A DNA stretch of 64,000 nucleotides from Lingula anatina (lineage: Eukaryota > Animalia > Brachiopoda), in contig CM120645.1 of NCBI GenBank assembly GCA_051362555.1, positions 24,580,934 through 24,644,933 on the forward strand, in the 5' to 3' direction. A model generated the notes under the pieces. It did no database searches. It was not told the origin of the DNA and worked only from the letters and a program-made list of their open reading frames with translations. A program made the position numbers and the translations under genes. This document shows, piece after piece, positions 15,014 through 59,853 of this stretch (its first letter is position 1; each line of letters begins with the position of its first letter).

Positions 15014-15026
15014 GTTACCTAGCAAC
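15014..15026. promoter_or_regulatory. RFX X-box-like motif upstream of PRKAR2
   Basis: GTTACCTAGCAAC fits GTNRCC(N0-3)RGYAAC, about 400 nt upstream of the ATG in the CpG-rich promoter region. Motif match only. Confidence 0.5.
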
Positions 15027-15149
15027 ACCTGACACTTATCAATCTTCCGCAAGCACTATTTAACGATCCTGAATAGGTGTCGCAAGAATGTGCCCAAGCG
15101 GCACTTCTATTTATTCAGAGTCCCTTATATTCATTATCAAGGTCACTTT

Positions 15150-15398
15150 GCAAAGGTAAGTTCACGAACTGCATAAAACCGTATTGAAGCGTCGATGTTC
15201 TTTTGTTGCGGATTAATTTGCTTGAGGGGCTTCGTGACGTCATTTGGCCTGTATCATGACTTGAAGTGAATGTCAACAGCAAGAGGTAAGTAACAGGTCG
15301 ATGTACAACTCTCCCGAATGTGCAACCATGATTTGAATTAATGACTTAACGAAAAAGTTGAATGAGTTGATGAAGACAGTGAAGGTTTACTTTTCCAG
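15150..15398 (+). other. Probable PRKAR2 5'UTR intron(s): two strong donors and one acceptor
   Basis: AAG|gtaagt after 15155, GAG|gtaagt after 15285, and acceptor ttacttttccag| at 15398, upstream of ATG 15431. Confidence 0.55.
15235..15242. promoter_or_regulatory. Full palindromic CRE (TGACGTCA) in PRKAR2 5' region
   Basis: Exact TGACGTCA about 190 nt upstream of the ATG. Motif match only. Confidence 0.5.
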
Positions 15399-15430
15399 TG
15401 AATAATCTGCATGGTGGACAGTGTCACAGC

Positions 15431-18400
15431 ATGAGTTTGGAAGTAATTGTTCCGTCTGGGTTGACAGACTTGCTTACGCCGTTCGTAGTGGCTGTCCTGC
15501 GAGATGGACCGGACGATTTGGTGGATTTTGCTGCAAATTACTTCAATGAACTCCGAGAAAAGAGGCAGGGAACGCTACCAGGAATGGGAAGGGGAGTTCG
15601 TTTTGTCCCTGGTTCCGACGATGAAGCCATGCAAACGGACTCTGACGATGAACCAATGCCAGGTGAGAGTGAACGCAAATCTGTTGTCAGCACTCATTTG
15701 TTGTACAAGTGATATAAACCGCAATAAGTCGTTAGGAACACCAGTAATTATATCGCTGTACAAAGGTAATTGGTTCGAAGTTTTGTTGAAAGGTGTATAA
15801 GTCTCCAATTTGACATTTTGCCCCAGGTTACATCGCCCAGCCAACCAAAGGCTGATAACTTACTTGATAAAGAAAAAAATCCCTTCTCTCAGTGAAAACC
15901 AGATTTCAGCACAGGTGGAGGAGAACATGTGGTTCAGTACTTTGTGTAAATATTGTGCCAGTCTTGTAACATCCCACAGAATTTTCTCCTCAAATAATTG
16001 CAAACAGCTCTAGGGTAAACAAGACAGCATCTTCAAATAATTGATGTAATAATGTACTCCCCCATGAATTACTTCTCGCTTTGAACAGTTATAGACTAAC
16101 GAATACTGAATACAATAACACAATATGTGCTTGTTTTTTTCAAAAAAGATTAAGAATATAAGCATGTCATTATAAAAAGGGATGCATAGTGTAATTACTT
16201 TATTCCATCTTCTATTTATAAATAAAAAATAACATAAAGCCTGTCATATAGAAAAGAAAGACCTCATAAACCCTTGAAAGCTCATGATTTCGATTAGCAT
16301 TTCTTTCATTTTGTTTGGATTATATGAAATGCCAGTTCTCTCAATCTTTTAATCTGTCAGTTTTCAGATGTTGATGTTTCATCTTGATCAGCTCAGTTGG
16401 AAGGTCTTGTTCAGTATCAAAATAAAAGAATTGGCATAAAGTTGGTCGAGAAAAGATTAATCGGTATAGAAATGGGATCTTGATATTCTTAAACTGCATC
16501 TTCTAGTTATTGATCATGTTCTAATGGGATTGTTTTCATTTTACTGATTAAGTTGGGAATTTCATGTTTCTAGATTAGCTGTATACAGTTGTATTGAACA
16601 GATGGGCATCCTTGATTGGATTTGAATTGTTATTATCCATGCTATGGGAAGAAGTTCACTTCATACCATTGGATGCAGGAGTCATTTAAACTTGGTGTTT
16701 TGGTAGTATACTGATAGCTGGAATTCATAGTATTTCTAATAATTGTGTCTCTAGTACAGGACGTAAGGAATTCATGTGTGAAAAGAGCCTAGGATTTTGG
16801 CTGTAGGTAATAGAACATCAAATATTGAACAGACCAAATTGAAGATTGGCCTGCTGCTGGTAGAGAATAGATTTTTCTTAAGACACAAGTTAGTTCCTTG
16901 CTTTGTGCTTAGCTATAAAGTTAGCTTAACGTGGACATGACGGAGGTTTGTGATGCGGCAGATGGGTGTGTCAAGCAGCGAGAGAGACGGGGGGCTGTCG
17001 ATTCCGCAGTAGGTAAGATGCTGTACTCTGGACAGAGTCAAATGTCAGCTTTATACATTTCTAAAGCATGGTTGTAAGTACTCTAAATATGAAATATTGA
17101 CTTCTGCAGGCTACCCATGTTCGAATTATATTCCTGATCATTTGTCACAGTATGTTTATCTCAGAAACTGGCATACTGTTTAATTGTTTTTCCTGGTGCC
17201 ATAGCAATGCAGAAAATATACTTTGGGAAATAATTTGAATCACATAGGCAACATTATATGCCTTTCTTTCATGTTTTTTAATTGAGATATACAGACTCGC
17301 ATTTCTATGCTGCCTAAGGCATTAGGTGTCATTAGATTGTATGCCAGCATTTACAACTGTTTAAGGGATATTCCGTCCATTAACACCTGTGATAGTTTCC
17401 CCAGATGTAGACATTTGATCTTGATTACATTTGAGACGTAGGTTTAAAAGAATTGGATGATTTTAGTTGCTATTTTGTTACTATAGGCTAATTATAGGTT
17501 CACCCAAGAGGACACGGGGTGGTATATTAAGGTTAAGTAGCCATAGTGTTCAGATCAATCAACCGTTTCCTGCAGTTTCACTGTCAATAGTTCATCATTT
17601 TCCACCATTTTCATCTTGTCAGTAGAAATTTGTACAGCGTTTAGAAAGATCAATCTTCTCCTTCAATACTCTCTGCTGTGTTGTTTACATATCTGTCTGT
17701 CTTGCCGTATAAATAAACCTGTACTGGTGAGATAAAGCCAATGGTTTGTTTTATAATCAGAGATCACCTGTACATTTTACATCCGTCTAAGTGCAGTTGG
17801 TGTGCCTGGTAGAAATGGATTTTTAAATAAAGCAAGTTCTGACAGCTAAATCCTAACCACCAGAGGTTTAATTAAAGCACATAAAAAGGGACCACTCTTT
17901 TGGACTTACAACAGTACGAGTTTTATGGTTGTGTTCTCGAGATATAAAAATAACACAGCCTATTTCCTACAGGTTTTTGCTTTATTTCTACTCTCTGTAA
18001 AATTCTGTAATATGTCAGCAAAATGTCTATAATCCATTATTTTACAGTTGAAATGTGAATGTGTTGTCTTAACTGAAATCATATATGGTTCCTTAACATT
18101 TTATCTTAGAGTGGTTTCAAATTTAAACAAAACATGTAGTGAAGTTTAAATCCTTTTAGCATTGTAAGATACTAAAGGCATTGAATGATTGTTAATGAAT
18201 TACCAAAAAAAAATGGTTTTTTGAAACCTTAAACTCATCATACTAGCAAATGTATGATTTGTATGATGGACCCAGGATTTAATAATAAATATTGCTGCCC
18301 CAGACCTTTAATTTATATTCTGAAAAATGAAAATGTTGGTGTTTAGTGAGGTGTGAGGTGATGATTATGGCATGTATGTATGCTATACAAAACAACTTTA

Positions 18401-20190
18401 CTTAATATGTAGTGTTATGTTATGTACTCAGCAGTTTTATAATATATCCCCTGTAAGTGAAGTATTAGATTAAACATCCTCTTAGTTTTGTTGCATATCT
18501 CTTATAATGCCAGTGAAGAATCTGCAGATATTGAAATACACCTTTTGAAATAATGTTTTATTTATAATCAGGCCCTTTTTTTCAGTATTACCAAAAATAT
18601 GCTCTCATCTCAAATTGATTTCATTGTTAAGTAAAAAATACACCTTATATTTTGTAGCCTATGCAATAGAATTAGAGCAGTTGTACACCAGTCCAAGGCT
18701 TGTGGTAGGGCACTCATAGTTTACATAACTCCATGTCTCTGTGCTTTTATTCCAAATGTTATTTTTACTTGAGTTCCTATCAGTTGCATTTCATATATTT
18801 CAAAGGTTGTTCTCAATTTTGCCTGCATATTGGTTGAGTAAAGCGTATCTTGTCACAAGTTTTGTCTGGTCTAAATAGATAAGATAATGTTACAACAACC
18901 TTGAAGGGCCTGCGTTGATTACACTGGCAGATGAAGTGTATATAAATAGTGATATATAAATGGTGCCAGTTTCAATGAATCATTAATAAATTCAGCATTT
19001 CTAGGTTGTTAGGGACTTGATAGAAATTTTTCATATTGTCTGTGGACAGGTAGTGAACTGTGCCACTGGCTGCATAGTTTAATCTTTTTATTCACTAACT
19101 ATTGGGAAAACAATAAAGTGGGCCTGTTAATAATGCATGGAAATTGTTGCCTTTGATGAAGATAATTTTGTAAAGTGGTACAACTGAAGAGCTTTGAGGA
19201 TGTTTCTCTTTCAATTTACTAAAAAGTGTATTTAGCAGCAGTACTATGTGTGCAGGGTTTTGTATTCTATTCAGACAGTGAGCTGAAGAGGGCCAAGCAA
19301 CTTGATGGATTTGTAGACTGCCAGGCAATTTCTAACTCAGTGGAAGCTAAATTGTTGTGGATTTTTTAAACACTACTGATACATGGATAAAATCTCTGTT
19401 AACTTTTGTGCATGAAAAGATTACACCCAAGTCTTGGGAAAACAAAACTCTATTGTTTATCTTTATTTTTCAGTGAGTTGAACGTTGTAGAATATTAGAT
19501 AATAAATAGAAAGAAACAGTTAAGATTTTTTCTTTATTTAATAAATGACAAAAATAAGAAAAAATAAATAAATAAATAAAATCTTGAATATGCTGCCTTT
19601 GGTATAAGCTGATTTGAAAAATTGTGGAGAACCTAACTCTTCTTTTACATAAATACTTTACATGGCTTTTTGTAATGAGGTGTTATATTTTTTATGTTTG
19701 AGATGTGAGAAATAATGCAGAAGGCATTTGTAAAGAGAAAATGATACATAAATGATTCAGCATATGCTATTTATGGATGATAATTGTAGTAGACTTTAGT
19801 ACCAGGCAAATGATTTGTTTCTTGCAGATCAAAAGCTGCAAAGCCAAACAAAATTACTACTATTGCAAGTTTTGAATATATGATGTAGGTAATGCCTAAT
19901 GCTGCCCCAATTGATTTAATACCATGAAAAGACTACATAGTGAGGGCTGTCTAGTGAGTCTCTGTCGGAGTCTACCAGATAAGTTGTATCACTGAGCCAG
20001 CTAAGTTATGACAACAGAATTCATTTATTTCATGGTTGAGTGTTCACCAATGCAGATTGGTGTGGTGAAATAACAGCCTGTGTCAACAAACAGGTGGGCC
20101 AGATTGCATGGACACTTGCTAGAAATTATTCTCTGGTCTATTCTTATGTTACAAGTTCTCCTTTGTGGCACCTAGACCTCCCCTGATGTT

Positions 20191-20238
<48 letters not shown>

Positions 20239-26200: not shown

Positions 26201-29200
26201 ACGAGACTGTACATTACATCATCCAGGAATCCCCCAACCTCAGCCAGTCACAAAATAGCATTTGTAAGTGAAACTGAGGTTAATAAATTATGTATAATTA
26301 GCTGGGAACTCCCCGAGATTTTCACCCCGTCTCTCTTTTCGAATGTAGTAAAATATATCGTCCAGAAAAGAAACAACAACGTATTCCTTATATTTACACA
26401 TTCCCAGTCAGTTTGAAAACTCGCCGGACATACGGTCCGACGATATAGGATTTTTTATCGGACCGAGACGAAATTTTCCAGGCATGTCCGACGGTCCGAC
26501 GCCTTTCGTAAAGTCTGATTTTTTATATCTGATTTTGTTGTTGTAGTATCTTTTTAATAGTTTAACAAGAGCAAGGAAAATTTATACCTTTTTTTGAGTA
26601 CTTTTATTGCAGTTTTACTAGTGTGGTTGCAAAGGCGTTCAGTGTAATGCATGTAAATTCAGATACTAGTAGCAGTGAAAATAGGTTTATTCTTAGACAG
26701 AGAATAGGTCTGCCAATTTACAATGATAATTATTAATAGTTTTTGAGGCACTTACAAGTCATACAAAAAAAGGAAAGGAATATATGCAGTTCAGTTTTGT
26801 CGTTTTAGAAATTTTAAGGTTATACTGTGAGTAAATTAGATAAGTAAACTGTGACTCAGTCTTAGTTTTTTATTCCAAGGTAAAGAAGAACAAATGATTA
26901 AATGATAATTATATGTGTAAGTGATTTGGTTTTGTAAAAGGTGCAAGGTTTTTAACATCGAGGCACTGGCAATACCCCCAAGGTTGGCACCATTCCCTCA
27001 CTTAACATTATCGGCCAAACTGTTGACATTAGTCCTGTTTATGGTCTGTTGTGGTGGAGTTTTGAACTTCCAACTCCATGTATTGCTATGGTAGCTGGGC
27101 TTCTCAAAGTAAGCAAAGATAATAGAAATGTAAAGGTGCTGACTTGGGGGAGGAAAGGGGGGGAGGGGGCCTTGAACCAGTAGGGATCAACATTTTATTA
27201 GACACATATTTAATAGTAAGTGTTATAGTCTTATAGTAAAAATATCAGGAATTGTAATCTGTGGTCACAATTAATTAGTTACGAACCACAGAATAGACAG
27301 GAAGATGCAGGTATGGCTAACCAGGTGTATAAGTTTATTATTGCTATCCATATCCAAGGCAATATAATGGTGAAGTGCCATGAACTATGGATGAACATAA
27401 TGTGTCAGCAGTTGCCAGTCAGGTATGGTAGTGAGATTTAAGTGGGGTTCCAGGTGTTATTACTGGGAAATAGTGGCGCGGTGAAGTATGCTTCTTGGAG
27501 TTATTCTGAGCAGTGAGAAAAAGATGCATTTAATTGAAATCCTGGCTGGTGTAAGACAACTGATTTCTTCCCAACATCTTATTGGTTGGCTGTTAAGTCT
27601 CTGCAGGCATGGTATGCTAGGGAGTTGTTTATAGGAATTTCTTTACCTTCAGGTGGAGCAAAAGTGCAGAGAGAGGGAATGAGGGGTGTTTTTCTTTTTG
27701 TGGCTTTACGTTATTTTGCTTCCACTTTATGGCTGTAGACCCCTGCAGCCACTGGTGACATTATCATTGTGTTCAGTAGTGTGTGCCTGCAGCTGTGGGA
27801 CTGTAGGCTGGATAAACTGCAGTTCCTGGACTACTCACTTCAGTACTGGTGGGTGTGGTGATCAGCTTACCTCAGTGTGGATACCCCTCTCCCTTCACTG
27901 GCTGGCCTCACTTCAGTACTGGTGGCTGTGGTGATCAACTTACCTCAGTGTGGACACCCCTCTCCCTTCACTGGGTGGCCTCACTTCAGTACTGGTGGGT
28001 GTGGTGATCAGCTTACCTCAGTGTGGACACCCCTCTCCCTTCACTGGCTGGCACATGGGGAGTGGATTCCTGACTGGAAGTGAAAGCAAGTGGTGAATAC
28101 CTATCACTACAGTCTAGTGCAGAAGCTGTAAGAAAACCTGTGATCTGAGCTGGTTTGTAGACAGCATCTGAAGAGAACTGATCACCTGGTTGGAAAGGTG
28201 TTTTCACAGCAGTTGTCTTTGATTGGGCTGAGCTGCTGTAAACTTGTGTTTGTCATAGGGAGAGGAGCCACTGCTGCTGCTGCACTGGTATTGAGCTACA
28301 GTTTGTGTCAAGGAACAGATTGAGAGCCTTGTTTTCTGGATATGCAGTGAATTTTCATCCTTGCTGCAAGGTCTGACATCTATTTTGTACAAATTTGATT
28401 TGGAATTGGCATAATTAGTGAAGGGCAGAGAGCTAAAGCCTTGTAGATTCATATCTAATGTGTTACTGTAAAACTGCAATTTGACCAAAGGAATATGTTT
28501 TATATTTTGAGTGCTCTGCAGTGATTTCTCAGCTGTGCGCTATTTGTGTAACAGTAGACGTCTACCTATCCAAGTCGTGATTAGATGGAATTCAAGTCAG
28601 GTTTCAAAGTACTTAATGATGGCAAGGTAATAATTTCAAATTAAATCTGAAGCAGTCAATCTTATTTATGCATGGCCATTCTTTTCAAGGAAGGAGAATC
28701 TGGCCCTGAAATCCTTGAACTCCATAGCAGGAAGAAGAAAGATTTGATAGACAGCTGATTGCAAATCTTTAATAACACTTACTGGAAATGACAGTAGTTT
28801 TTTCTGGTCAACAGAGTGGCTGACTCCTTATTCTGCTGTCTCTGAACACAAGATACAGGGAATATTTATAACAAAAATAGACTACATACAGTATAGGGTT
28901 CATCATCTCTTAGCCTGTTCCACAGGGTCACAACAGAAGACTGGAGAGACGGAGAGCAAGAAATCATTGGTTATATTCTATTAGCTTAAGACCTCTAAGT
29001 GACAAGAAAAGATAGCCTGCTTCCTTATCTGTACAGTTCTGGACAGTTAATACTAACTGAGAAAGGCAAATTTATTTTATACAACATGGGTTCAATTTTC
29101 ACTAAGTTAACTGCCTGGCGAAGGTCAGAACCCATTACTTCTCCTCCTAGTGTGGGAGAGGCACCTGCCACTGCAGAGGGAAAAGATCAAGGTAAAAAGG

Positions 29201-35200: not shown

Positions 35201-38200
35201 ATTGGTTTGGTAAGTGGAAGATCCCAAGGAAAAATCTTAGAGCTGGTTGATGTTATTGTTTTTGAGCTGTAAATTAGCCCACACTGTAGATTTGAGTTTT
35301 TCCTTAGGTTCAATTGAAAGAAAAACTGACCCATCCTAAGACTGAGCTGCTATCCCTGTGTATACACAGTCGTCACTCGTTTATCAACTGATCAATTTTG
35401 ACTGGCTTAATTAATAATCAGTCTGGTGATTTTCTTTAGCCGCTTGGCTTAAAAGGTTTTGTGAATAAATACTTATATGAGAGTTACAATGAGTACATAA
35501 AATAAGATAAAAAAAAAGTTAATTTAAAAGATAAAAACGTTGATTTTATGTTCTTTAAAAATCAGAAAATATTTTGATATTGGTTAATATCATAGCATTT
35601 TTTTCCTGTCTTGAATTGATTTAATCTCACATTTAGATGAAGTTGTGACCAAATAGTGCAGGAGGCCATGTGTAGTTTTAGCTCATGTGCTCAGTTTAGG
35701 AAGCAGGGGCCTTTCAGCCACTATATCATCCTGAGTACAGGTGTCAGGCATTGGGGAGGTGGGCCAAAGGAGGAAAGATGGTGGGGGTACTTGAATTAGA
35801 GGAATTGTACAGTCATCTTTTGTAGTTTCCCTAGTAATAAACCATGCCTAGTTACCATGGGCATTTACTGGTGAAACCAGCTTGCCAGATTATAATTATA
35901 TTAAGAAAGGTCTAGCAGGTGTTCCCCCCACCCCCCTTGAAGGCCTCTGGTCAATGTTGGTGTGATCACAGTGTTAAGGTATCAAACCAGTTTTAAAAGC
36001 CACTGGTTTACGAACAGGTTGTTCTTCCATCATTATATTACCAGGAGCTATCCATGCCTGCTGATGGCTTGTGATCTATCATGAAGACAGCCCTGGAAGT
36101 CATTAGTATTGAGTAGTGATTGTCATGTGTATAATGTGACATACACAGGCAGAGAAACAGGTCTCTGTGCGCGCTAAGCCTGATTATCTTTCTAGAAATA
36201 ATCCAGAGATATCTTAAACAACCAGGTGGACAGATGTTGTAAATGTCTGAGACAAGATGGGAATATCTTGCTCTAGCATGGTGCAGCCACATGACCGGGA
36301 GTCTCCAAGGAATGGAGAAGTCAGCAAAGATAATACCCTCCCAGTTGAACAACAGCAGGATAGCAGAGAGTTCTCTAATAGTCCTAACTTACCACCAGGT
36401 AGTAGATATAGATGTAAGAGTTCTCTAGTAGTCATAACTTACCACCAGGTAGTAGATATAGATGTAAGAGTTCTCTAGTAGTCATAACTTACCACCAGGT
36501 AGTAGATAAAGATGTAAGAGTTCTCTAGTAGTCCTAACTTACCACCAGGTAGTAGATATAGATTGTGGTCACTTACTAGTAATGGTAGATTATGGATAAA
36601 GACAGTTTTGACTTATCTAAATTGTGTTAATAGTTTAAAGATGTAATATTAACCGTGTTCATGATAATTCAGGTGCTTTTGAAGTTGCAGATATTGGTTT
36701 CTTATGGATGTGGTTGATTTGTTTAAGAGTGTTTTAAAAGCATTTCGCCAAGTTTCATACCAGAGCTTCAGTTGAAAGTTGGTATTTATCTGAAGACAAA
36801 ATTTTTGTTATGTAATGGTTTTATCTTTAGTAGTCCACTAAGGTAAAGTTATTATTAATTTCAGACAAAAAAAACTTTTTATCTTTATCTATAAAATATG
36901 TCCAATAATGTCACTTAATTGGACTACAACACACTTATCTCGGGTTAAAGTAAACTGAATTTTTGTGTCAAAAAAATTACAACCATTATTCAACTTATGT
37001 TCTTTTTTGAAACTGTGACTCTCACTCAAGTTTTTTTTTTTTTTTTTTTTAACAAAAAAGGGAGAGGTGATTGTTGTTTGCTTTTGTCACTTTAAAGTCT
37101 GTTCAGTGAAACTTTTTAACAAATGCAATATGGAGGAAAGTATAAGATTGCATTCATTATATTAATTGGATCATGAAGTTGGTGTCTCATAACAGTGTCT
37201 TGAAAGAAAGATTGTGTAAGAAATTAGGAACTCAAGCTGAAATACATTTTCCATTGTATGGCTTGTTATAAAAAATGTGTTTCTGTGAGGCGTTTTAAAG
37301 CAGAAATTTGATGTATGGATTTTCACAGGTACAGTTGATGTGGATGTTTTGTGTGGGTTGGGAATTAATCAAATACATTTGGACTTGAGGAGATTTCATG
37401 GTGGTGGGTATCTTAAGTGTTATTCAGTTGCTGCAGATAAATAGTAATTCTGTGTAGAAATCAAACTGATGGTGTGAACATGGTTTGTGATCAGCTGTAG
37501 GGTTGTTTTTGATTGAGATTTAATTAAATAGGAGTGTGTGCCACAATAAGTCTCACACCATAACATGTTCTACATTGCCTGAGGTCAGCCCTCAGTCTGA
37601 AGGTTGTGTGCACTTGGCTATAATACCTTTAACCTGTGATGCCAGGCCAGTTCACCAGAAACCTCTCTCTCTTCTTCCCCCCCCCCCCCCCCCCCCCCCC
37701 CCCCAAGAATACTCACATAATATTTTATTAAACTAGTTTTGTTAGAGTAGCATCCCTGGCAATTCACAAGTATTATTTATTTATGGTACTACTTTTTGTC
37801 TTGAAGGATGTTATCTAGAAATCTTATTTGAGAAAAATATGTTATCTAGAAATCTTATTTGAGAAAAATGTGAGACTGTAATAATAATAATAATAATAAC
37901 AACAACAGCAACAGTAAATACTACTACTACTAATAATAAATAATAATAATAACAACAGTAAATAAAAATAATAAGAACAATAACAACAACAGAAAAAAAT
38001 AATAACTGTGAATAATAAAAATAGTGATGATGATGATGATGATAAAAGTGGGCCAGGATAAGATACTAAGTGAAAAGGGAAATAGAAAATGTTTTATGTC
38101 TCTGGAAGAGATCATCTTTACAATATTTTTTGCTGACATTACGTAGGGACCTTCATCCATAAATAAATAACAGTGTAAAATATATTGTTTATTTTGATAA

Positions 38201-41200
38201 AGATGGTAATCAGAGAGAGAATGTGACAGTTCATGATACTTTTCCGCCACTAGCCAGCTGATTGTCTTTGGTAAAATTAATAATAAAGGAGTAGGAATTT
38301 TTGTGAATGAATATGGAGCTTAATTTACTTGAAATATTGTTTAAAAGAACATTTAACCATTATTTATATCTTTAGTTGATAATGCTTTGTTTCTTCAGTT
38401 TCTAATAATTTGTTATCTGCTCTCTTTCAGAGCCTCCTATGAAGAACAGATACCAAAGAAGGAAATCGGGTAAGTCCACCTGTATTGGCAGTATGGAGAT
38501 ATAATACTTGTAAATCAAGTCAGGTAAGTCCAATGTGGAATATCTAACACTGTGATGTACAGGGGTTCACCATGTCTTGTATATCCTCACATTTGGCTTT
38601 CTCACCAGTAGTTAACAGAGACTAGCTTTGCAAGAATTTTATTTATATTCTATTTATCTGTATCTTTATTCAATTTGAGATTGTGTATTCAGCTATGGTC
38701 AAACAAAACTGATTTCATGTGCTATATGCTTGAGCATCAGTGTCTGTAAAAGGTTATGTGAATAAAGAGGTTTGCAGAAATCTGCCATGATACCTGCCCC
38801 CTCCCCCCCTCCTCTCCTATATGCTTCTCATTCTACCCTGTGGGGTTGTGCCAGGGTTAGACCTGTATTAATTCTCTTACTGTATCTAACATCCTGTGGG
38901 ATATGCTTCTACCCCCAGAATTTTTAAGATTCAACTGGGACAGCAAACTCGGTATTCCTGTGGTTTGTTTCCATCTTCAGTATTTGCAGCTGAATATTTA
39001 CCAAACAAACACCTTCCTTGTTTCCTTGAATTTTAACTATATTTTCTGAGATTCTAACCAGATGGTTTAAAGGCGAAAAAGTAATGTCTAATTCATATGA
39101 GACTATAACAGGTGTGCTGAGCAATTAGTCAGATTTAAGATACTAGTAACTGTTTCATCAGAATTCCTCCTGCCTGAGATATACCAGGAAGTAGTATAAG
39201 AATTTGCACCTTGCACATGTCTAGACTGTGGAGTTGGCTGACTATCACCACTGATATCTTGGCTAGGCCGCAGACACCCAGTGCTTGGAGATAAACTTTG
39301 CTGATAACATACTTTGGTTCCTTATACATTAATGCTGGTTATATTTGTCATCTTTATGAAGATATGAAGGAAAGAACAAAATGGGTTTTATAGAGTTGGT
39401 AATGGATAATAGTGAACTAATTGATAAATGAATGGTCTTATTGGGTGGATTTGAAGAAGAGACCAAAAACTAATAATGAGAAACACCTAGTTATGGTTGG
39501 GTATTATTTGTTCATTCTAAGAGCGCATTCTCAACGAATTAAGCCAGGCTTTACAAAGCCGGTGACCTAAAAATGGCGGACGTACATGAAAGAAAAACCG
39601 CCTAATCTTTTAATAGTCTCTCCGCCTCCCCACACGTCGTCCCTGCGGGGTACAGTAATTAAATCTCGGCTCCGTTCGCCATGCGGAAGCTACCTGAGAA
39701 ATATTAAGTGCGCATGCTCATCAGTTAAACTCGTGGTGAAGAAGGCATAGCGGCTGAAGGCGATCCAAAAAAAAAAGCTCTTCTGTTCTATTATCTTTGA
39801 AAACAGAGACGAAAAAGGAATAATTTGGCCCGTAGAGCAGCAATGAATCGACTATCTAAGGAGATAATATCACCAGAGATATTCACGGAAATATTAATGT
39901 TCGGAGCCGAGATTTAATTACTGTACCCCGCAGGGACGACGTGTGGGGAGGCGTGTGAGAGGCGGAGAGACTATTAAAAGATTAGGCGGTTTTTCTTTCA
40001 TGTACGTCCGCCATTTTTAGGTCACCGGCTTTGTAAAGCCTGGCTTAATTCGTTGAGAATGCGCTCAAAGTTTGTAGATTGTCCAATTAAGCTAAACTCT
40101 AGGTTGCACCTATCTGAACATGATTCACTTATCTGTGATGTCCTCACATTATATATATAAATATTATATGCTGTACAATATATATATATATATATTCTAG
40201 AAAACAGTGCTTGGACACTTTTTTGATAGGGTGATGTGATTTTTTATGTCTGATGTTTGTTTTTCTACCTTTGTTATTTTAACATTTTATCAAGGTGTAT
40301 ACTGAAATGGTGGTTTGAAATAACTGTTATCATAATGTTTTAATTCCCATGTCAGCTATAATCTGGTGAGAGGTGACCAGTTCAGGAGACAGCAGACTTC
40401 AGACGTGGGGTTTGCTCCCCTGCTTGTCTGTGTCAAGACAAGCCCTCTACTACTAGAGCCACCTGGTGGACAGAAGCTCCAGAGTGTGCTCTTGCAGTTT
40501 ACTCTATTATATTATAACCATAGCCTTAAAGCTTTTGCCAGTTTCTTGGTGCATGCGTGTAGTATAGTTATGACTGACACTTTTCAATGGAGAAATATTA
40601 TCAGTCTTTCAGCTACATGTAGTAATTAGTCATTAATGGTTTAGATGTTACCACCAGATATCAGCTATCTGAATTTTCTGCTCCATTGACTTTTATCACT
40701 ATTTTTTAATTTGATATGCCTGCATTTACATTTGTTCTGTTCTGTGACATTTCTTGTAGTAAATGTTGAATATATAATAATGGATTAAATCATGGTAAAA
40801 ACCTCTTTATATTGAAATATTAATTTCATTTTTTCATGATCCAGTCATAATCGTTGAGATAATTGTGTATTAATAAGATATGTGCCCAAAAAAGCCATGC
40901 ATAAATATCCTATAATTTCTGTGAAATTTCTGTGCTAAATAAAGAGAATACATACATTACTAGTATATATATATATATATATAATCTTTGGAAGAGACAT
41001 TTGAAAATGGATTGTAGAAAAAAGCCAGAAAAAAAAAATATGGTAATTTTAATCATTGATGCTATAGTGTCTTTTGCTGATATCTGTTCACCATGGTTAA
41101 AATAATTATATGTCTGTTTGTTGTTTGTCAGCTAGGGCAGTGCGCTATGTGAGCAGCCAGTACTTCCTGACAGTTTTATTATCAAATTACAAATATTGCA

Positions 41201-47200: not shown

Positions 47201-50200
47201 GTGTGAAATGAACCAGACGGTGGCCAATGATTCTGGATGTTGAATGAAGTGTAACTTACAACATTAAGGAAGTAATTAGGGGGATGGACTGCTGTTTTAA
47301 TTAAAGTGCATCTGACATCTCTTCCTAAACCCCTGGCAGTGCTAATTTGCTAGTGAAGAAGCCACTTAGTTGGATGACTTGACTTCCCCCAGGGACAGTG
47401 AGAGCTGTGCTCTAGTCCAGGAGTAGAAGGACATACTGAATGCATGGGAATAGAGAACCAAGGGATTGGCACAAATATTTATTACAAGTTTGAGTTAATT
47501 TCCAAATCAAGAGGAAGCCTCATTTCTTATGGATTTTGGTGAATGTCCAATGAAGAATCTTCATAGGAAAAGTATAAACAGAGTTACTTAGGTCCAGCTG
47601 CTTTGGTAACAAAAAATTGCCAATACCAGAATAAAAACTTGGCCGACAGTTCATGGAATAAGAAATCGTGAAATATATCAAGAAAATATGAGGACAAAGA
47701 TTGGAAGAGCATATCTCAAAGATTACATTTGATTTGTCTACACACTGTGAATAAGTGTACCTATGTTCACTGACATATTGTTCAGTAGTGCACCTCCTAT
47801 AACATATTGCTTCCCAGAAGAAATCACTTCAGTGTAATTAGTCAGTCAAGCCACCCTCTCAGTAATGGCAGAGTCCCCAGCAGGCTCTCCTGTACCTCCT
47901 AAGAGACCATTACGGAGGAGATCAGCAGGTAATGGCAGGTTTCTCTTGCACTGGGGGAGGGGAGGGGGGGGGGGAGTTCTGGCATTCAAAGAGAGAATGA
48001 TTTCTAATATGATAATATATTAATGGTGGAAACTGATAACAATACCATGCTGGCCTCTGTGATATATATATATATATATAATGTGGTTACTTTGAGCTCC
48101 ATGGACGTATGCCAGTCATTGTAAGTGCTACAAATGTTTTTACACTTGGCATTTTTAAACAACCAGGTGTTTGTTCATAATTTACTGCCACACTTGTTAA
48201 TTACCCTGTCACCATTTTTTTCAATACCTCCAGTGTATTTACCTGTAGGTGGACCAGAGCTGACAGAAACAAGAGAAAGGACAATGTATCAGGGTACCCT
48301 GATATGATATCTAAATACATGGTGTAGCACCTGTCTCAGTTATTACAAAGTTAAAACAGTTTACTAAATAAAACCTGTGTCAGATCAAGAAGTCAAGGTG
48401 TTTACCCTGTTTTACCAATTATATTATTGATTCATAATAGGCATGTAAAGTTAATTTGTCTGAAAACTCTAGCTAATAAGTTGAACTGGAAATTGGTTTA
48501 CCCCACATATTATACATGTTTGGAAATTGATCTGCTCTGACATTGTTTTTTATTGACTGTGGTCTCTAAACTACTGTAAACATACTTAAATGCTGGCACG
48601 TCTATTAATTAGACCTAAGTTATGCTATTAGATATACCCTGTAGTGCAGAAAAACGTCTTATATTAGATACTGTGCTAGAGTAATGGTTTTATTTGGTAT
48701 GGATCTAAGTTTTTCTTTCAGAAGTGTAATTTTTTTTGTCCCATCTTTTTTATTCAGGTTTTAACACTAAACGAAACAGGTAGTAAGATTATTTTGCACA
48801 TATTTTTCATGTTTAAACCAGCTTGTACTTGAACAGTAGACTGTGACTTTTCTTAATTCTAATTAGTGTTCTTTGTTCTCTTTCCAGTATCAGCAGAGAG
48901 GTATGACCCAGAGGCAGATGAAGATGAAGGGGACCAAAGGGTAAGACACTGTCCTCACACAATCAGAATCATTCTTAGACCAGTATAGGTGGCAAAAGAG
49001 GGAAAGATTTCTGTAGTTCTTGCTAAAAGTAGATATCTGAAGTCAGAAGTTTAGTCTATATTTTATGTTTATGTTATCTAAATACACGCCATGTGAAAGG
49101 TTTATGTAGACCACTGCTTTTTTCTCTGTTGCTACACTAGTACTATAGCTTACTGGCATAGATTACCAGGTGGTTTTATTTTATCCTTCACTCCTTATCA
49201 AACTACCTGCAATAGGATAATGATTACAGCCAGTGCAGTGCTGTCATTACTCGCTGCTGAAAAAAATACTGGCCTATGCAATACGATATGGGGAACATTA
49301 ACAGAAAAAAAATATAATGAAAAAATGAAAAAAAAATAGCTAAAGGAGAATCATACTTAAATATCTCATTTTGGATCTTTTTGCTTCAAAATCAATAGAT
49401 GTTGACTTAAGCATCCTATACTTAGGTTACGGGAAATAATTAGGTTGAGATATTTAGACTACTATAGCTCATGATCAACTGATTCTTTTCTTTAAGATAT
49501 AAGTCCAAAGAAAAAGAAATGTATACATTACATTGGTCAATAGTTGGTTTGGCTATTTAGGATACGGTAAACATTTTCCTTCAAATGATAAAATAAAAAT
49601 TAGGCACACAGTTGTTTTTAGAGTCGGGGGACAGTCTTAGAGGAATATGAACCAAGGAAAAACATTTGAGGCCTATGATGAAATGTATTATTGATTTGTA
49701 GCTTGAACACTGACTGTTATGTCTAAATACATCCCAGATTCCATAAAATATCTCTTAGGTAGTTGCCATGGATGATTTTAACCAAATTTAAATTTTGGGC
49801 TAAGTCATTGATATAATTAGCTAGAAAAAAATTGTAAGTATTCCCTTTACCAAGTTTGAGTATGTTGAAACATTTGGCTATAATGGGTTAAATACAGTCT
49901 GCTAGAGTGAAGCCAGACATTTGTATTGACTGTGCAGTGGGTTTAGTCAGATAATGCTGTCTTAGCTCTGGTAATAGTTCAGTATTTCCTCCAAAGCTGC
50001 TTGAACATGATTATTTTTGGAACTGGATAACTTCAGGTCATGACCATCTCCACAGGTCCAGAGTGGAAACTAGATAACATCTGGAAAAAGATTTTTTTTT
50101 TCAGTTTCATAGTATGATCAAGCGATCAACTTTGTCGTATTGCAGTCAAATTCTCTGACTAATCATGACATTGTAAATCAAATATTTTTATTTCTAAACT

Positions 50201-53200
50201 AACACAGACAACATTACAATGTAATAGTTAACAGCCACTCTTTTTGAAGTATCACTGGAAACAAATGGCATTGTTAACTTATATCCTGGTAAAGTGGCAA
50301 CATGGGTAATGTATAGAATGCCTGTCACGCAGCTCTTGGAAATTGACAGTCATTTAAGTTTCACTTTTGTCCATCAAGTGAGCAGTCTCAGCATGCAGGC
50401 TATTGATCATGTTACTGTTACTTCTCAGGTTCTGAGTAGACTGCCTCATTATCACTTGACAGGATAGAAAGCTATTGTCTTTATTTGATAGCACATTTTA
50501 TTGATCTGTTTTAAAAAAATTGCACATGCTGTTATATTAAAGCAGTTATTTTATATTAAAGGCTATCAGCTTTCCACGTGAACCGTAGTCTTGTCATACT
50601 CAGTTATCACCCTGTTTTTCTGAGTTTTACTTCTTAAATGAATACAGTTTGGTTCAACATATTAGATGTGGGTATTGAAATTTAATTTTTGCAATACATT
50701 ACCTTGACAAATAAAAAAGAAATAAACCTAAGACTAATTTTCTTGATAGTAAACTATGCATACAGTCCCTTTGATGTAATTGTTTGAATTGTTGTAGTTC
50801 TCTGTAGATTAAAAAAAAAAAACTTATTCTTCATGGTGTTAGTGTGTTTATCTTTCTAGGTAGTTCACCCAAAATCAGATGAGCAAAGAAAACGTCTCAG
50901 TGAAGCGGTGAAGAATATTCTTATCTTCAGGTCCTTAGATATTGTAAGTTAAAGATTTGGGGAAAATATCATATTTCGACATGCTTTATTTGACTATTTT
51001 CAGTGCATATCATGCAAACATTGTTCAGTAACATTTGACCTATAATTTGACCTATTATGTTGTAAATTACAATAAAAGAAATTATGTACATCAATGCAAT
51101 TTAATTGATTAATTTGACATTTTGGTTCTTAAATTGAACTGTTCCTCTCAGTTTGTTTGTATTTACCAGTTGAATCACTCTGGATCCTCAGTTCCTCTCA
51201 GCTCAACCAGATAACTGTCATATAGCTTTTCACTGTTGTTAATTCCAGGAACAGATGCAAGAAGTTATTGATGCAATGTTTGAGAAGAAGGTAGGTCCAC
51301 TTGATGATGTTCTGATATAGGCTGGCAGGAAGGGAGGGGGATATTGTTTTTATATTGTCTGTATTATGTTTGTGTGTAAATGTAGAGGAGTGTTGTAAAG
51401 CCATACAGTCCCACATGAGTCCAGGCTGTATTATGTTTGTGTGTAAATGTAGAGGAGTGTTGTAAAGCCATACAGTCCCACATGAGTCCAGGCTGTATTA
51501 TGTTTGTGTGTAAATGTAGAGGAGTGTTGTAAAGCCATACAGCCCCACATGAGTCCAGGCTGTATTATGTTTGTGTGTAAATGTAGAGGAGTGTTGTAAA
51601 GCCATACAGTCCCACATGAGTCCAGGCTGTATTATGTTTGTGTGTAAATGTAGAGGAGTGTTGTAAAGCCATACAGTCCCACATGAGTCCTGGCTGTATT
51701 ATGTTTGTGTGTAAATGTAGAGGAGTGTTGTAAAGCCATACAGTCCCACATGAGTCCTGGCTGTATTATGTTTGTGTGTAAATGTAGAGGAGTGTTGTAA
51801 AGCCATACAGTCCCACATGAGTCCTGGCTGTATTATGTTTGTGTGTAAATGTAGAGGAGTGTTGTAAAGCCATACAGTCCCACATGAGTCCTGGCTGTAT
51901 TATGTTTGTGTGTAAATGTAAAGGAGTGTTGTAAAGCCATACAGTCCCACATGAGTCCTGGCTGTATTATGTTTGTGTGTAAATGTAGAGGAGTGTTGTA
52001 AAGCCATACAGTCCCACATGAGTCCTGGCTGTATTATGTTTGTGTGTAAATGTAGAGGAGTGTTGTAAAGCCATACAGTCCCACATGAGTCCTGGCTGTA
52101 TTATGTTTGTGTGTAAATGTAGAGGAGTGTTGTAAAGCCATACAGTCCCACATGAGTCCTGGCTGTATTATGTTTGTGTGTAAATGTAGAGGAGTGTTGT
52201 AAAGCCATACAGCCCCACATGAGTCCTGGCTGTATTATGTTTGTGTGTAAATGTAGAGGAGTGTTGTAAAGCCATACAGCCCCACATGAGTCCTGGCTGT
52301 ATTATGTTTGTGTGTAAATGTAGAGGAGTGTTGTAAAGCCATACAGTCCCACATGAGTCCTGGCTGTATTATGTTTGTGTGTAAATGTAGAGGAGTGTTG
52401 TAAAGCCATACAGTCCCACATGAGTCCTGGCTGTATTATGTTTGTGTGTAAATGTAGAGGAGTGTTGTAAAGCCATACAGCCCCACATGAGTCCTGGCTG
52501 TATTATGTTTGTGTGTAAATGTAGAGGAGTGTTGTAAAGCCATACAGTCCCACATGAGTCCTGGCTGTATTATGTTTGTGTGTAAATGTAGAGGAGTGTT
52601 GTAAAGCCATACAGCCCCACATGAGTCCTGGCTGTATTATGTTTGTGTGTAAATGTAGAGGAGTGTTGTAAAGCCATACAGTCCCACATGAGTCCTGGCT
52701 GTATTATGTTTGTGTGTAAATGTAGAGGAGTGTTGTAAAGTCATACAGTCCCACATGAGTCCAGGCTGAGGCAGAAACAGTGTGAGGAGGTCATTCACTG
52801 AGGTAGTGCTAGCAATTTTTTTAGCTTAGCCTAATCGCCACTTTTTTTTCAATTTGTTATCCAGATGGTTATAATTTGACTAAAACAAGTCAAATCAAGC
52901 CCTTTTTGTTTAGCCAGTATAAGTCAGTTTTAGCATTTGGCTAAATTGGTGAGTGTTAGTGCTACCCCAGATTCACATTGACAGTTTACTAAGATAACAG
53001 TAGATTATGTGTGTTTGGCTTATATGTAGGTCTATTCCTGCTTCCATGGATAAGATAAATGAAATTCATCTATATTTTCTATTGTAGCATAGCTGCCATT
53101 GGCTAAGAACAATAGCTAGTATAGCTAAATGGCTCTGTCTGGCAAATGATTTTACTAGCTTTATGTCATAGCATCAAAACACCTGCTGCTGTCTTGGGCA

Positions 53201-56200
53201 GAGCTAAATAACTGTCCCTGTAATCAGCCTTTAGTATTAAGTTGCCTTTCCATGAAACACATGTTAAAGCTAGAAAACAAAACAAGACTGAGAAGCTTCA
53301 TATATGAGTCACTAGTTCTCTCTCCCATTGTAATCCTTCTATATTGGAACCATTCTTGGAGCAGTACAGTTAATTGATTTTTTCAAATGTCCTGTTATTG
53401 ACAAATTTGGGTTCAAACTATTTGTTTGTTAAAGGGATAACTGTTTGTCAATACATTGCAAACCACTCACAGAATATAGAAAATTTCAATTTGCCTCCAA
53501 AACAATTATAGCAATTATTCTGGAATCTGTGCTTGCCATCAAACCATATGGACCTTCATAGATGGCTACACTTCCATAATTATCTTTCAAGAGATTATTA
53601 CAAAAAAAAAAATAAATTAACATAGGCTAACTTTGAATGTTGGAATGGAGGCATTTACCATTGTTGATTATAAGAAAGTCATTGTTTCCCTAGGAAAATC
53701 CGTTTTTTGCCAAAACGAATATTTGTTATCCCTTCAAGTTGATTGAACTTAAATAGGAATAATTATTATGAAAGCTTTTTTTAGATGATTGCATAACTTC
53801 ATGTAGATCCTGTTATGTTCTCTGCATGAAGTAATGTAAAACATTGGCCCTTGCGTAGTAGATAATATATTTTTATAGTAGATAATATATAGTAGATAAT
53901 ATATGGTAGATTATATATATAGTAGATAATATAGAGTAGCTGATATCTGGCCTGATGCTATCAGCACCCAATGGTCCTGTCCACTAAGGTCAAGGTGCCT
54001 TGGGAGAGAACAGTGAGCTGGAGATTGCCTGGATAATGAATATGTATGAGAAAAAAAGTAATAGAAGAAAGGGCAAGCCACTGATCAGAACTGATTAACA
54101 TCTAAATGCAGTAATCTAAATAATCTGTGGCACCTCTCAGTTTGGATCAGTGGTAGAGAAAAGAAGAGAAACCAGGACTATATTGGATTATGTGTACAAT
54201 CCAGTATTTAGGACTGGTGTCAGTTTTGTCATGGTCAGAATTGCTACTGAGTTATCCATGGTTGTATTGATGGGTTAGGATAGTTTCTCATGTGGTTAGC
54301 AGAGAAAATAATAAAGGAAAAAAAGGAGCTCATATCTCTACATAAGCAGTAGTTTCAACTGTGCATTGACATTGAAGCTAATACAGTCAAGAGTTTGTGT
54401 AAGAGCAGCATATCATTTACAGTGTGAACACAACCAGTGCAATTCATAAACATTTTATGGGAAGACCGCAAAGTGATTATGACAGATTATTAATAAATAG
54501 TCAGATGTTCCCTATAATTATTATAATAGTACATTTTGTCTGCTCATGTAATCAATGCACATTACCAGGTGTCTTGTCTGCTGCGTGACCATCTTTATGT
54601 ATATATAGTTCAAGGATTGCAGTGTATGCACAGACATATTTCTTCCTTATGTTTAGTTTATTCTTTGATGACCATTCCTATTGCACATGGATGTATTCAT
54701 GCATGCAAATGCTCACATTTACTCTCCTCTCTCTACTTCACAGAGATGCAGTTTCAATGTATGTGTGACTCAATGTAGCATTTTGTGGCCTTTAGGTCTA
54801 TTGAACCTATGAAATTGGGAGCCATTACAAGCAATCAGCAAATGCATTTTGCTGCTGTTCATCCTCACTTCAAAGACCATTAATTGTTTTCCAGATGGTC
54901 TCGCTTGAAAGGCCAGTGGTAATTATTTACCAGATGGAATCTACTTAACCCACTGTTTTAATATATTTATGAATTGAGCAGCGTGATAAAATGTGGATCT
55001 GCTGGTTCTGAGATGTTGGACATGTACTGTAGATGGCACCACAATGCAACTCTGAAACCAGAATGAATCCCTTTTTGGGATATCCCAGACACTCGAATCA
55101 AGGAATATCTATCCTTGCTGGGATAACTTGGATACAAGGATCGGGAATGATATCCATTCTTACTGGGATGAACTGGGTCATTAGAGGTCATCTAGTATTG
55201 TACAGATATGAGGGGATGAACTGGGTCGGTAGAGGTCATCTAGTATTGTACAGATATGAGGGGATGAACTGGGTCATTAGAGGTCATCTAGTATTGTACA
55301 GATATGAGGGGATGAACTGGGTCATTAGAGGTCATCTAGTATTGTACAGATATGAGGGGATGAACTGGGTCATTAGAGGTCATCTAGTATTGTACAGATA
55401 TGAGGGGATGAACTGGGTCATTAGAGGTCATCTAGTATTGTACAGATATGAGGGGATGAACTGGGTCATTAGAGGTCATCTAGTATTGTACAGATATGAG
55501 GGGATATGAACTGATGAGTTACATTGATATACATTCAGCAGTTTTATCCCTATGGAAATCATTAGGAAAGCCTAATTTCTAATTACATTGATCACAGTAA
55601 TTTTTATGATGAGCAAAATTAACTAAGTCTGTATAAATATATTAAAATATATCACCACTGAGGCCTACGTACTTGGGTGTTTCAGGAGGAAAATCTACGT
55701 TTCCTGTTACTGCATTGTTATGTTCATGATACCTGTAATTTGTGTTAATTTTTCCATTCAAAATTCTAGACAGTTATGTTTTTTTTTTATACCCTATACC
55801 AATCTGAACAATATAAAATGAGCTTTTCTCCTATTTCTACATGAAATTTTGAAGTCATAAGCACATAGTCATTTTTGATTGGAAGTAAATTGATTAAATG
55901 ATTAGGCTATACTTTGAGTGAAGATGGCACACAAATATTTCCTTTAATAACATTTTGTAATTCTCCATATTCACTCCTGGAGCAAACTTATTTAGCATTT
56001 AGTAATTTCATAGCTGGACTTGAATGTCATAGCTTCTTGAGTTGCACAGAAATCTGTTTGCTATGGTGTGGAGTCTCTCCAGGTTTTATCCAATAAATTC
56101 CCCATTGTTGAATAAAGCACTAGTCTAAAGGTGGTCACTACCCCCCAGGGAGACGAGACTGGTGATTTGCCGCTCACTTGCATTTCATTCCAATTAATCT

Positions 56201-59200
56201 TTGCCAGCACTCTGGACCCTGAAGTTCTGCAGGGGTTTGCTGGTTGGGCTAAGCAGCCAGCCACTGGGAAATTGCTACTATTGATCAGGTGCTTGTTATG
56301 GGCTCAGATGGTAAATGGCTAAGTTGGAGTAGAATTCAAGGAAAAGGGATTGTTCCCTTTGAGGCCTGTGTGACTGCATTCACTGTAAAGGGTAACATTT
56401 CGTAAAATTGAAAAAAAAATGTAACAGTAATTTGTCAGGACAAGAGAGGACATGTCTTTGTACGCGTGTATTCACATTTCTGTCTGTAGTGGTTTTGTGA
56501 GATGGGTATATATAATACAGTATATATGTGAGATGGGCATATATAATACAGTATATCTGTGAGAGGGGTATATATAATACAGTATATATGTGAGATGGGT
56601 ATATACGATAAAGGATTTCTACAAAAGTTTATACGATAAAATTTTTCAAAATAGATGTGATTTTGTTGTAAATTAAATTCTTGTCTTGTCAATTCCAGAC
56701 ACAGCCCAATGAACATGTGATAGACCAGGGAGATGATGGAGACAATTTTTATGTTATAGACAGGTAAGAAGATTTCTATGTTATAGATAGGTAAGAAGAT
56801 TTCTATGTTATAGACAGGTAAGCAGAAGATTTCTATGTTGTAGACAGGTAAGAAGATTTCTATGTTATAGACAGGTAAAAAGATTTGTATGTTATAGACA
56901 GGTAAGCAGAAGATTTCTATGTTATAGACAGGTAAGCAAAAGATTTCTATGTTATAGACAGGTAAGCAAAAGATTTCTATGTTATAGACAGGTAAGAAGA
57001 TTTCTATGTTATAGACATATAGAAGGTAATAAGACTGATAGAAACACATTAGTATGTCTTAAATATCATTGAATGTAGTTTTAAAGACCAGTAAACATTC
57101 TCTGATATGAAGTTTTTATTTCCACAAAATGCTGGCTTCACTCTTTAAGTGATATGAAATCTGTACAGGATGTTAAAAGTCAAAAACACTGAAAAAATTC
57201 AAGATAGATCCAACGAAATAAGTCGGCAACATTATAACCGATTGAGAGGCAGAAGTTTTTTTTTTTTTTTGCAAATGTTCATGAGTAAAAGGTTCTGCCA
57301 TTTGCTCGAGAAATTTTGCTTTTGCGATGGAGAGTGAAGAAGAACAATGTTGTTTTAATTTTAAGTTTTTTCATTTATTTATTTATTTGTCCACTCATTG
57401 GTTTGATGACAATTTGATTATTTAGTAAAACGAAACTAAGGTCTTGGTAAAAATAATCTTATTGGTCAAAGCAAAAGGCAATTGTGCACTGAGGTTATTT
57501 TGTTTATACATTCATTGCTGGTTCACTTCATGCAGTGTTCTCTTGATATATATACATATAATTTGTATGGATATAGTAATGCTCTAATGGGAAGTTTGTG
57601 TTCTGTTTTAGTGGTACCTATGACATCTATGTTGATGACAACCTTGTTGGTGCTTATGAAAACCAAGGCAGCTTTGGAGAACTTGCCCTGATGTACAACA
57701 TGCCCAGGGCAGCCACTATCATTGCCACCTCTGCAGGGAGCATCTGGGCCATGGTAAGACACTAGGGCTTCGTTCACATGCAATATCTATTTTCTAAAAA
57801 TCTATTTTCTATTCACGGTATATCTTGTGATCACGGTCTGTGCCCTGAACATCCCGTGGCGTAATTACTGGCAGCGCGAGCCAGTTACTTCCAAAGCTGT
57901 AATTAATTCTCGGCGCTGCCAGTAATTACGCTGCGGGGTATTCAGGGCACAGACCATGATTACAAGATACCGCAAATAGAAAATAGATTTTTAGAAAATA
58001 GACATTGCATGTGAACGAAGCCTAGGACTGGCTTCTCATACCTAGATTGATCTAACAGGATGAATCCATCTCCCAGGGTTTTTTTCGTTAAATTGCATTC
58101 AGTTTAAGTGGCTTAGATGTCTGGCATGCCTACTGAAGCTGCTTAACAATAATAAATTACCCCATAGCAGCTTCAGCATGCATGACAGGCAATTTAGTGA
58201 GAATCCCCTTAGAAATAGATCGATCCACAGTTAGTAGGATAGGATCTGGGAATGGTCCCTATGTCTTAGATGTAGGCATTGTTTTAACTTGATATAGTGG
58301 GGTAGGATAACAAATACATATTTTGTTACAGCAGATTCATCATGGCTCAAATACTACATGGTCACCAAGCCAACAGATATCTTTATTATCAGCAGGGATT
58401 TCTTGGAGTGTGGGGATGGATTAATTCACAAAACAGTGTTTTTATCTAACTGCTTCAAATTTTGACATCACCACTATTTGTGTCATTTCATGACATTGTG
58501 ACCAAATAAAGTGATGTTATACTTGTGTTTTCACTTCCTACCATGTGTCTGACCTGGGTCTAAAGACCAGCTGGCATTTTCTCCCATGTCAATATCTATT
58601 CAGCCCTGTATTCATTATTTTTTATCTGGAACTGCATTACATTTAATGGCTTTCTGATGAACCTATACTGAACATTATAGCAGCAGATAATCCCTAGTTA
58701 AGTGGTATCATTGTAAGATAGAGAGGACACAGAATGGCTATTGTTGTAGCAGACCTCCCAGAGGGTCTAGCTACCTAGGGTAAATGACGTCAAGGTTGCC
58801 CTCAGACCTATGAAATAGGCTGCTAGCACAGAAATCTTGACCTGGTCAACTGGTACTGTTCCAAGAGATCTTTATGGATGTCATATCATCTCAGATGTGT
58901 AGAATGAGGTACAGATAGGGGAAGAAAGGGGAGGGGGAGAGAGAGAGAGACTTGATTTTTCCCCTGTATAACTCAGATAGTAATAACCATTATTTTGCTA
59001 TATACTCCAGTGGTTTTCTGTTAGCCTCACTGCACAAAGACATGGTAGTCTGTGGGGAGACATCAGTCTGTGATACATTATGTATTCAGAGTCCCAGCTT
59101 TTAGTGGCAATCAGCTGAATACTTTATAACAGTGCCATGTGTTTGGCGCCTGGTGTATGAGACAATATACACAGGTGCCAGCATAGCCTCTATGCCATCC

Positions 59201-59799
59201 ATTGCCTGGTGCATAAGGTTATCAAAAGCTGATTTAGTTTTGAGAAATATTACTCCTGAAGATGGTGTAAATTTTATTTTCCATTTTATCCCTCTCTCCT
59301 TTCCTCCAGGCCAGTGTTTTGTGATAGAGATACACCTCCTTACAATTTACTGTTGGGCTCTGCCTAAAGATATTTTCTTTAGCTTCAACATTTTTCTGTT
59401 GATAATCCTGAAATAAATATTTTACTTCCTTGCAAAAGGGTAAAGGTGGAGCCGAGCACAGCATGGGGGTTGTACATGTTCTTATAGAAATGTAGTGATT
59501 TTAATTTTTTTTATTTTTATCTAGGACCGTCATACATTCAGAAGAATAGTACTCAAAAATGCCTTTAACAAGAGGAAAATGTATGAAAACTTGTTAGAAA
59601 CTGTGCCTATGCTCAAGACACTAGAGGTAAGGAAGAATCAAGATTTGTTCAATGGCAGAAATGCATAAAAACTCATGTTTTTGCTTACATTGGTGTGTAA
59701 CATATATGTGCAGGAGTACGGGTTCTTGCACGCATGCGTGCACATGTGGACATACACATGATCTCACACACATGGCAAAATGATTTATGTGAGTGTGCG

Positions 59800-59853
<54 letters not shown>

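Follow-up and report, generated by a model that had tools for sequence, protein, structure and literature searches.

Within a 64,000-nt stretch of Lingula anatina DNA (hereafter, the window), we find a candidate alternative first coding exon of the PKA RII gene (16937..17012, plus strand) whose short leader carries the pseudosubstrate-type motif RRGAV. It is probable that this is a real exon and that it joins the common inhibitor-site exon at 38431. Our best explanation, which we prefer tentatively and hold at somewhat less than even confidence, is that an old and rarely used first exon splices to 38431 and yields an RII subunit without the dimerization/docking (D/D) domain. In such a protein RRGAV would lie 18 residues before the ordinary RRKS site and, tethered there, serve as a weak second brake.

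The window is identified as the L. anatina PKA RII gene by the exon-by-exon match of RefSeq isoform X2 (XP_023932346.1) in tblastn. An RIIa-type D/D domain is encoded at 15431-15661 (Pfam RIIa, E 3e-10), giving the gene, as a gene, its RII character. An RRxS inhibitor site, RRKS-V, is assembled from the exons at 38431 and 48888, and two cNMP-binding domains (PF00027, twice in the isoform X3 protein) come from exons mapped to the window. All exons of this gene discussed here lie on the plus strand. The canonical D/D exon (15399..15662) is coding from the ATG at 15431 and ends in a phase-1 donor; it is supported by the Pfam match and by junction reads. Ahead of it is a 5' UTR exon ending at 15285, with a GT..AG joint over 15286-15398 seen in three reads. 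Three other D/D-less first exons are, according to the RefSeq models, already in use by this gene: that of isoform X2 at 29086..29191 (starting MG, 35/35 identity), that of isoform X1 at 36257..36398 (starting MGISC, 46/47 identity) and that of isoform X3 at 47865..47928 (21/21 identity). In these models, isoforms X1 and X2 join the common 39-nt inhibitor-site exon (38431..38469), which ends RRKS with Ser at P0 (13/13 identity to isoform X2, plus the D/D junction reads), while isoform X3 goes directly to the exon giving the P+1 Val and SAERY (48888..48940, placed by the isoform X2 mapping). Both of these are genuine phase-1 acceptor exons. The exons of both cAMP-binding domains, common to all isoforms, follow at 50860..62877 (tblastn with isoform X2).

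The three RefSeq isoforms retrieved (X1, X2 and X3) are all D/D-less. The D/D form is nevertheless real: nine reads in RNA run X9 pass from 15662 into the 38431 exon. This isoform is expressed yet missing from the retrieved set, and it has a D/D domain that has diverged (56-60% identical to its closest matches). The annotation is therefore incomplete, and the absence of the candidate exon from the same three isoforms is weak evidence against it.

Several further features of the gene and its surroundings deserve mention in their own right. The first exons at 29086-29191 (MGSIF) and 36257-36398 (MGISC) begin Met-Gly, gastropod leaders begin MGCLF, and the isoform X1 and X2 leaders may, judging from these residues, be myristoylated, giving membrane-targeted RII forms. 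The 3' end of the isoform X1 exon and its donor are tandemly repeated about four times over 36368-36560, which creates alternative in-line donors, and downstream, at 56700-57000, the CNB-A exon's end (DNFYVIDR) apparently recurs in tandem. Upstream, a Bap31/Bap29 gene carries tandem copies of the same transmembrane-region exon (5271-5513 and 5882-6058; Pfam positions 60-116 and 61-115), which by their sequence are likely mutually exclusive exons. A CpG-rich insert lies at about 25400-26500, and a CpG-rich, MITE-like element occupies 39521-40066; its terminal inverted arms are perfect over 108 nt, and an inner pair measures 52 nt.

The candidate exon sits 1.27 kb downstream of the D/D exon. A preliminary description of this DNA had reported there a leader containing RRGAV and followed by a strong phase-1 donor, and this is correct: an ATG-opened ORF of 25 codons plus one base in 16937-17012, then G|GTAAGA with the donor GTAAGA at 17013. 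The motif itself spans 16985..16999, with Ala20 at P0 and Val21 at P+1 by the consensus set out in PMC5059767. The frame is closed 5' of the ATG by a TAG at 16922, and the phase-1 donor of the D/D exon is unable to reach it, so the candidate is only possible as a first coding exon. Within 15663-38430, no other ORF of 8-80 codons opens with ATG and ends in a strict G|GT[AG]AG phase-1 donor (n=1). Nor does any other of 570 loosely delimited pseudo-exons, from both strands of the window, contain RR-x-[AG]-hydrophobic. The retention of CpGs in an otherwise depleted intron, which the same description had noted, stands in part. The exon has 6 CpGs in 76 nt and a GC content of 59%, and nearby densities are about 0.46-1.1 per 100 nt (0.72 upstream in 16100-16936, 0.46 in 17013-25000); but the exon lies on the shoulder of an 11-16 kb CpG island (CpG o/e 0.37-0.41 in 16001-18000), so the retention is partly positional. 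A transposon origin was considered and rejected, as 16500-17300 contains no repeat of at least 20 nt and no repeat-like read pile-up.

For transcription, we compared eight of the nine same-species RNA runs (X6 was left out), sampling about 6% of runs X1-X5 and 25-30% of runs X7-X9. Reads were placed on segments of at most 20 kb, a length exceeded by the 21.4 kb between 17012 and 38431. Sense-strand reads cover the candidate exon in one of the eight, RNA run X3, with about 6 reads from 3 fragments and three start places. Depth there is 4.07, 5.91, 2.24 and 0.36 in four bins of 16858-17125 (about 843 bases) and falls to zero in 15652-16857 and 17126-17250. The island is thus a discrete sense-strand unit in that run. 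All of its reads have the first mate on the minus strand, which we read as sense because the D/D exon, in RNA run X1 of the same study, reaches a depth of 5.34 on that side versus 0.11 on the other. In RNA run X3 the candidate is covered more deeply than the D/D exon in sense orientation (0-2.0 for the latter). The part of the island ahead of the ATG (16858..16936, start approximate, from the depth in this run) contains no ATG and is a probable 5' UTR. Read differences in RNA run X3 fall at 16907, 16921 and 16930, all in this presumed UTR and none listed in the ORF, counts that are too few to test and not significant.

The remaining runs are silent at the candidate exon. RNA runs X1, X4, X5 and X7 have zero depth in 16897-17107, with the D/D exon at 0.2-9, and RNA runs X2, X8 and X9 have zero candidate depth; the D/D exon is covered in X7-X9. 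A high-copy repeat at 14267-14440 may mask junctions there in part of the read placement and leaves the zero candidate depth unaffected. No read crosses the 17012 junction, and RNA run X3 has no partly aligned reads; its depth in 17059-17125 implies at least one read running at least 47 nt beyond the donor, unspliced. Over 15000-16120, opposite-strand reads cover the promoter, D/D exon and start of intron 1 in RNA runs X1-X3. They are deeper than sense in runs X2 and X3, cross the 5' UTR intron of the D/D exon and are probably an antisense transcript.

A comparable leader is present in another phylum. In RII isoform X3 of the nemertean Lineus longissimus (XP_064633497.1, a predicted automatic model taken as protein sequence alone), a 26-residue leader before EPP ends KRRCAIDGAY and continues into EPPKNRFMRRKSV. 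It precedes a normal RRKSV segment, and its motif lies at the same distance from the junction as that of Lingula. The consensus R-R-x-A/G-hydrophobic is thus matched by RRGAV in the one and RRCAI in the other. Over the last ten leader residues, compared without gaps, R, R, A, D and A are identical and V/I is similar; the P0-to-P0 spacing is 17 residues in Lineus and 18 in the Lingula candidate joined to 38431. The junction-anchored BLOSUM62 score of the pair is 24 over 10 residues. Of 27 other distinct D/D-less N-termini the runner-up scores 1, and among 485 pseudo-exons of the window the top score is 11. By random draws, P is 3.5e-5 for each exon, or about 1e-3 corrected for 28, for a statistic that was devised after the match was seen and that takes the exon ends of other species from an EPP-like motif.

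How widespread is such a leader? We assembled 210 RII-like proteins whose inhibitor site could be recognised, drawn from the best 120 of 2818 matches, a further search and cluster members; the set is redundant, and large clusters are represented in part. Among these, an RR-x-[AG]-hydrophobic motif ahead of that site occurs once, in Lineus isoform X3. No comparable leader is seen in the clusters sampled from molluscs, echinoderms, hemichordates, amphioxus, priapulids and corals. Nor was a comparable exon found in 41 genomic D/D loci on metagenome contigs (best score 15 among 884 donors), most of which are short and belong to two groups of near-identical sequences, and of which 15 reach at least 1600 bp from the D/D start. 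A search for homologs of Lineus residues 1-42 returned one candidate and no match, a result that is uninformative because the Lineus protein is a cluster member and not a representative; the ESM Atlas gave no usable match to the same residues. Two kinds of apparent counterpart were set aside. The single match of profile A1 among 1.84 billion representatives is a 983-aa protein without Pfam domains, judged to be chance. Amphioxus KRAGV and limpet KRGGV stand 38-40 residues upstream and apparently belong to a common linker GVxF motif, which is found in the Lingula D/D exon too. The conservation of RRGAV, proposed earlier as a check, is therefore mixed: a same-register motif exists in one Lineus RII isoform, but not in the 209 other proteins or the 41 loci. 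The same balance applies to the claim that the ORF is a leader exon of an R-subunit gene. Low-level sense transcription and recurrence in Lineus speak for it, whereas the Lingula splice junction is absent from the reads.

These observations must be weighed against several other readings, which differ in where the exon splices, if at all. The preliminary description had proposed 38431 or, alternatively, 48888 as the partner. Splicing to 38431 fits the phase and the tandem RRCAI...RRKSV of Lineus, although no Lingula run contains the junction. A direct join to 48888, in which RRGAV would replace RRKS, is also compatible in phase, and isoform X3 makes such a join. The P0 residue would then precede the Ser of SAE by 7 residues and not 2, i.e. 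5 out of register, and the Lineus leader keeps the RRKS segment; moreover, the isoform X3 exon lies 3' of 38431 and so has no choice but 48888. The nemertean tandem and the register offset both favour 38431..38469, which we regard as the likely acceptor, and make the 48888 product very improbable. Quite improbable, too, is an unspliced transcript encoding a free, PKI-like micro-protein of 46 residues (ORF 16937-17077). The frame does stay open to 17077, and at least one read of the poly(A) library of RNA run X3 crosses the donor unspliced. On the other hand, depth ends at 17125, no AATAAA or ATTAAA occurs in 16701-17500, the donor is strong, no PKI match was obtained, and the leader of the Lineus model runs on into RII.

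A more sceptical reading is that the ORF is a chance one beside an active CpG-island promoter, caught in stray transcription and never spliced or translated, with a coincidental match in Lineus. The thin RNA record (about 3 fragments in one of eight runs, no junction read), the antisense reads nearby in RNA runs X1-X3 and the fact that there is a single look-alike are all in its favour. Yet stray transcription fits poorly with an island bounded by zero depth on both sides, and chance fits poorly with the only strict-donor ORF in 22.8 kb and a Lineus match at P about 1e-3. We consider this reading rather improbable. Unlikely, but the strongest of the rivals, is that the exon is real and joins 38431 while its motif is inert on PKA-C, making it another D/D-less leader, perhaps for targeting (it contains two Cys) or for another partner. 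D/D-less N-termini are common (51 of the 210 proteins by a crude pattern), and decapods are reported to have D/D-less RI and RII (PMC12608923). The leader has no PKI-type helix, and two of the residues shared with Lineus, D at P+2 and A at P+4, go beyond what the RRx[AG] consensus asks for. Set against this, what has been kept is what a pseudosubstrate needs (two Arg, Ala at P0, a hydrophobic P+1), whereas the Cys positions and the remaining leader have not been kept. Given a real exon joining 38431, an action of RRGAV on PKA-C is, in our analysis, moderately probable.

What kind of inhibitor might it be? The preliminary description had compared the leader to PKI's N-terminus, and this likeness is not borne out. 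No Pfam family (at E<=10) and no PKI chain in PDB searches matched, with short queries of limited power; Lineus starts MSDD and not MT.V; and no helix is predicted, at low confidence, upstream of the Lineus motif. That description was right that the PKI P-11 Phe is missing, P-11 being Asp9. The flanks have no P-11 aromatic, no P-6 Arg and a Glu at P-4, and residues 1-25 of Lingula contain no aromatic residue for a PKI-type amphipathic helix. The Lineus leader is coil in AlphaFold (residues 1-29 mostly below pLDDT 50, namely 1-25 and 27-29), which is weak evidence. By the tests run, the candidate falls outside the PKI family, although in action it may resemble a weak PKI.

Published work suggests what the motif could do. 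The PKA inhibitor consensus is R-R-X-S/(A/G)-hydrophobic, and a 25-mer of human ARHGAP36 containing RRGAV binds PKA-C with high-nanomolar affinity and inhibits it (both in PMC5059767). Tight binding to PKA-C requires the PKI amphipathic helix or, for RI-alpha, CNB-A, as given in PMC11616992. With no aromatic in the Lingula leader and a low-confidence coil in that of Lineus, we infer from this requirement that intrinsic binding is weak. RRGAV alone would bind weakly and have an effect only through tethering. PMC6143667 states that (auto)phosphorylation of the RII P-site favours dissociation and that pseudosubstrates require ATP and two cations. In the mechanism we propose, the candidate isoform, without D/D, would lack dimerization and AKAP docking and be a monomeric R subunit that binds no AKAP. 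RRKS and CNB-A would form a normal, tight holoenzyme. Once RRKS is autophosphorylated or CNB-A is loosened by cAMP, the flexible, non-phosphorylatable RRGAV could move into the same C subunit's ATP-loaded cleft. The result would be a higher cAMP threshold and faster recapture, RI-like behaviour from an RII core. The likeliest role of RRGAV would then be that of a back-up site on the same C subunit in a monomeric, unanchored holoenzyme. The earlier proposal also allowed two C subunits to be bound by one R. Of the two mechanisms it put forward, a stable 2C:1R complex is the less likely, because the second site lacks both a PKI helix and a CNB-A of its own; binding of another C subunit at RRGAV might be possible, with about 10 free linker residues and no second docking surface.

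Isoform X3 bears on how this gene uses its inhibitor sites. Its junction (47865-47928 with 48888) reads RRRSAVSAE, with Ala where the canonical P0 falls. No other of the 121 sites scored has a residue besides Ser at P0. Read in the canonical register, this would be a pseudosubstrate of the RI kind carried by an RII core; a shift by one would make it an RRRS substrate. The Ala at P0 suggests, from the sequence, that the Lingula RII gene varies its inhibitor chemistry by promoter choice. A bolder hypothesis, which we regard as doubtful, is that the candidate is an ancient lophotrochozoan RII first exon that fuses a PKI-like pseudosubstrate ahead of RII and holds or recaptures PKA-C after cAMP binding and autophosphorylation. 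Together with isoform X3, promoter choice would then switch between substrate, pseudosubstrate and double-site inhibition. RI and RII are each defined by one inhibitor site, a pseudosubstrate or a substrate. If the hypothesis is true, the rule that the RI or RII gene fixes inhibitor chemistry is broken, and a natural R subunit with both sites in tandem would be a new way of setting the cAMP threshold. A two-site R also bears on the debated restraint and recapture of C subunits after activation. If the motif is inert, this is an ordinary unannotated first exon. Our literature search on two-site R subunits and Lingula PKA returned nothing relevant among the papers listed, within a coverage that excludes most subscription journals, the home of older invertebrate PKA work.

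Ultimately, the candidate is best understood beside known systems. Like PKI, it would present, within a disordered peptide and about 20 residues into the chain, a pseudosubstrate with Ala at P0; unlike PKI, it has no amphipathic helix or P-11 aromatic and no Pfam or PDB match, and it has an RII core attached. The PKI residue details used in this comparison are general background, apart from the amphipathic-helix requirement. R isoforms with alternative N-termini are known from fly, nematode and Aplysia. With ARHGAP36 the candidate has in common the same five residues RRGAV, which there bind and inhibit PKA-C (PMC5059767). The comparison covers these five residues; ARHGAP36 is a RhoGAP-family protein unrelated to RII, and no homology is claimed. 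The RI-type inhibitor site is, like RRGAV, RRx[AG]-hydrophobic and non-phosphorylatable, but it is the sole site and in register with CNB-A, whereas RRGAV would be an extra one, 18 residues upstream of RRKS. Across metazoans there is one conserved AI site per subunit type, RRx[G/A] in RI and RRxS in RII, according to PMC12608923. The D/D-less invertebrate RII forms (Lingula X1-X3, Lineus X2-X6) and the truncated RI and RII of decapods (PMC12608923) replace the D/D domain with a leader and leave the core unchanged, as we propose here. Their leaders have no second inhibitor-type motif, except that of Lineus X3, whereas the candidate has one. Lineus isoform X3 is the closest relative in design: like the candidate, it carries RR-x-A-[IV]-D-x-A in its leader (of 26 residues), equally far from the junction, and RRKSV comes next. 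The two differ in spacing (17 versus 18) and have little identity upstream of the motif, and our searches found no described function for the Lineus form.
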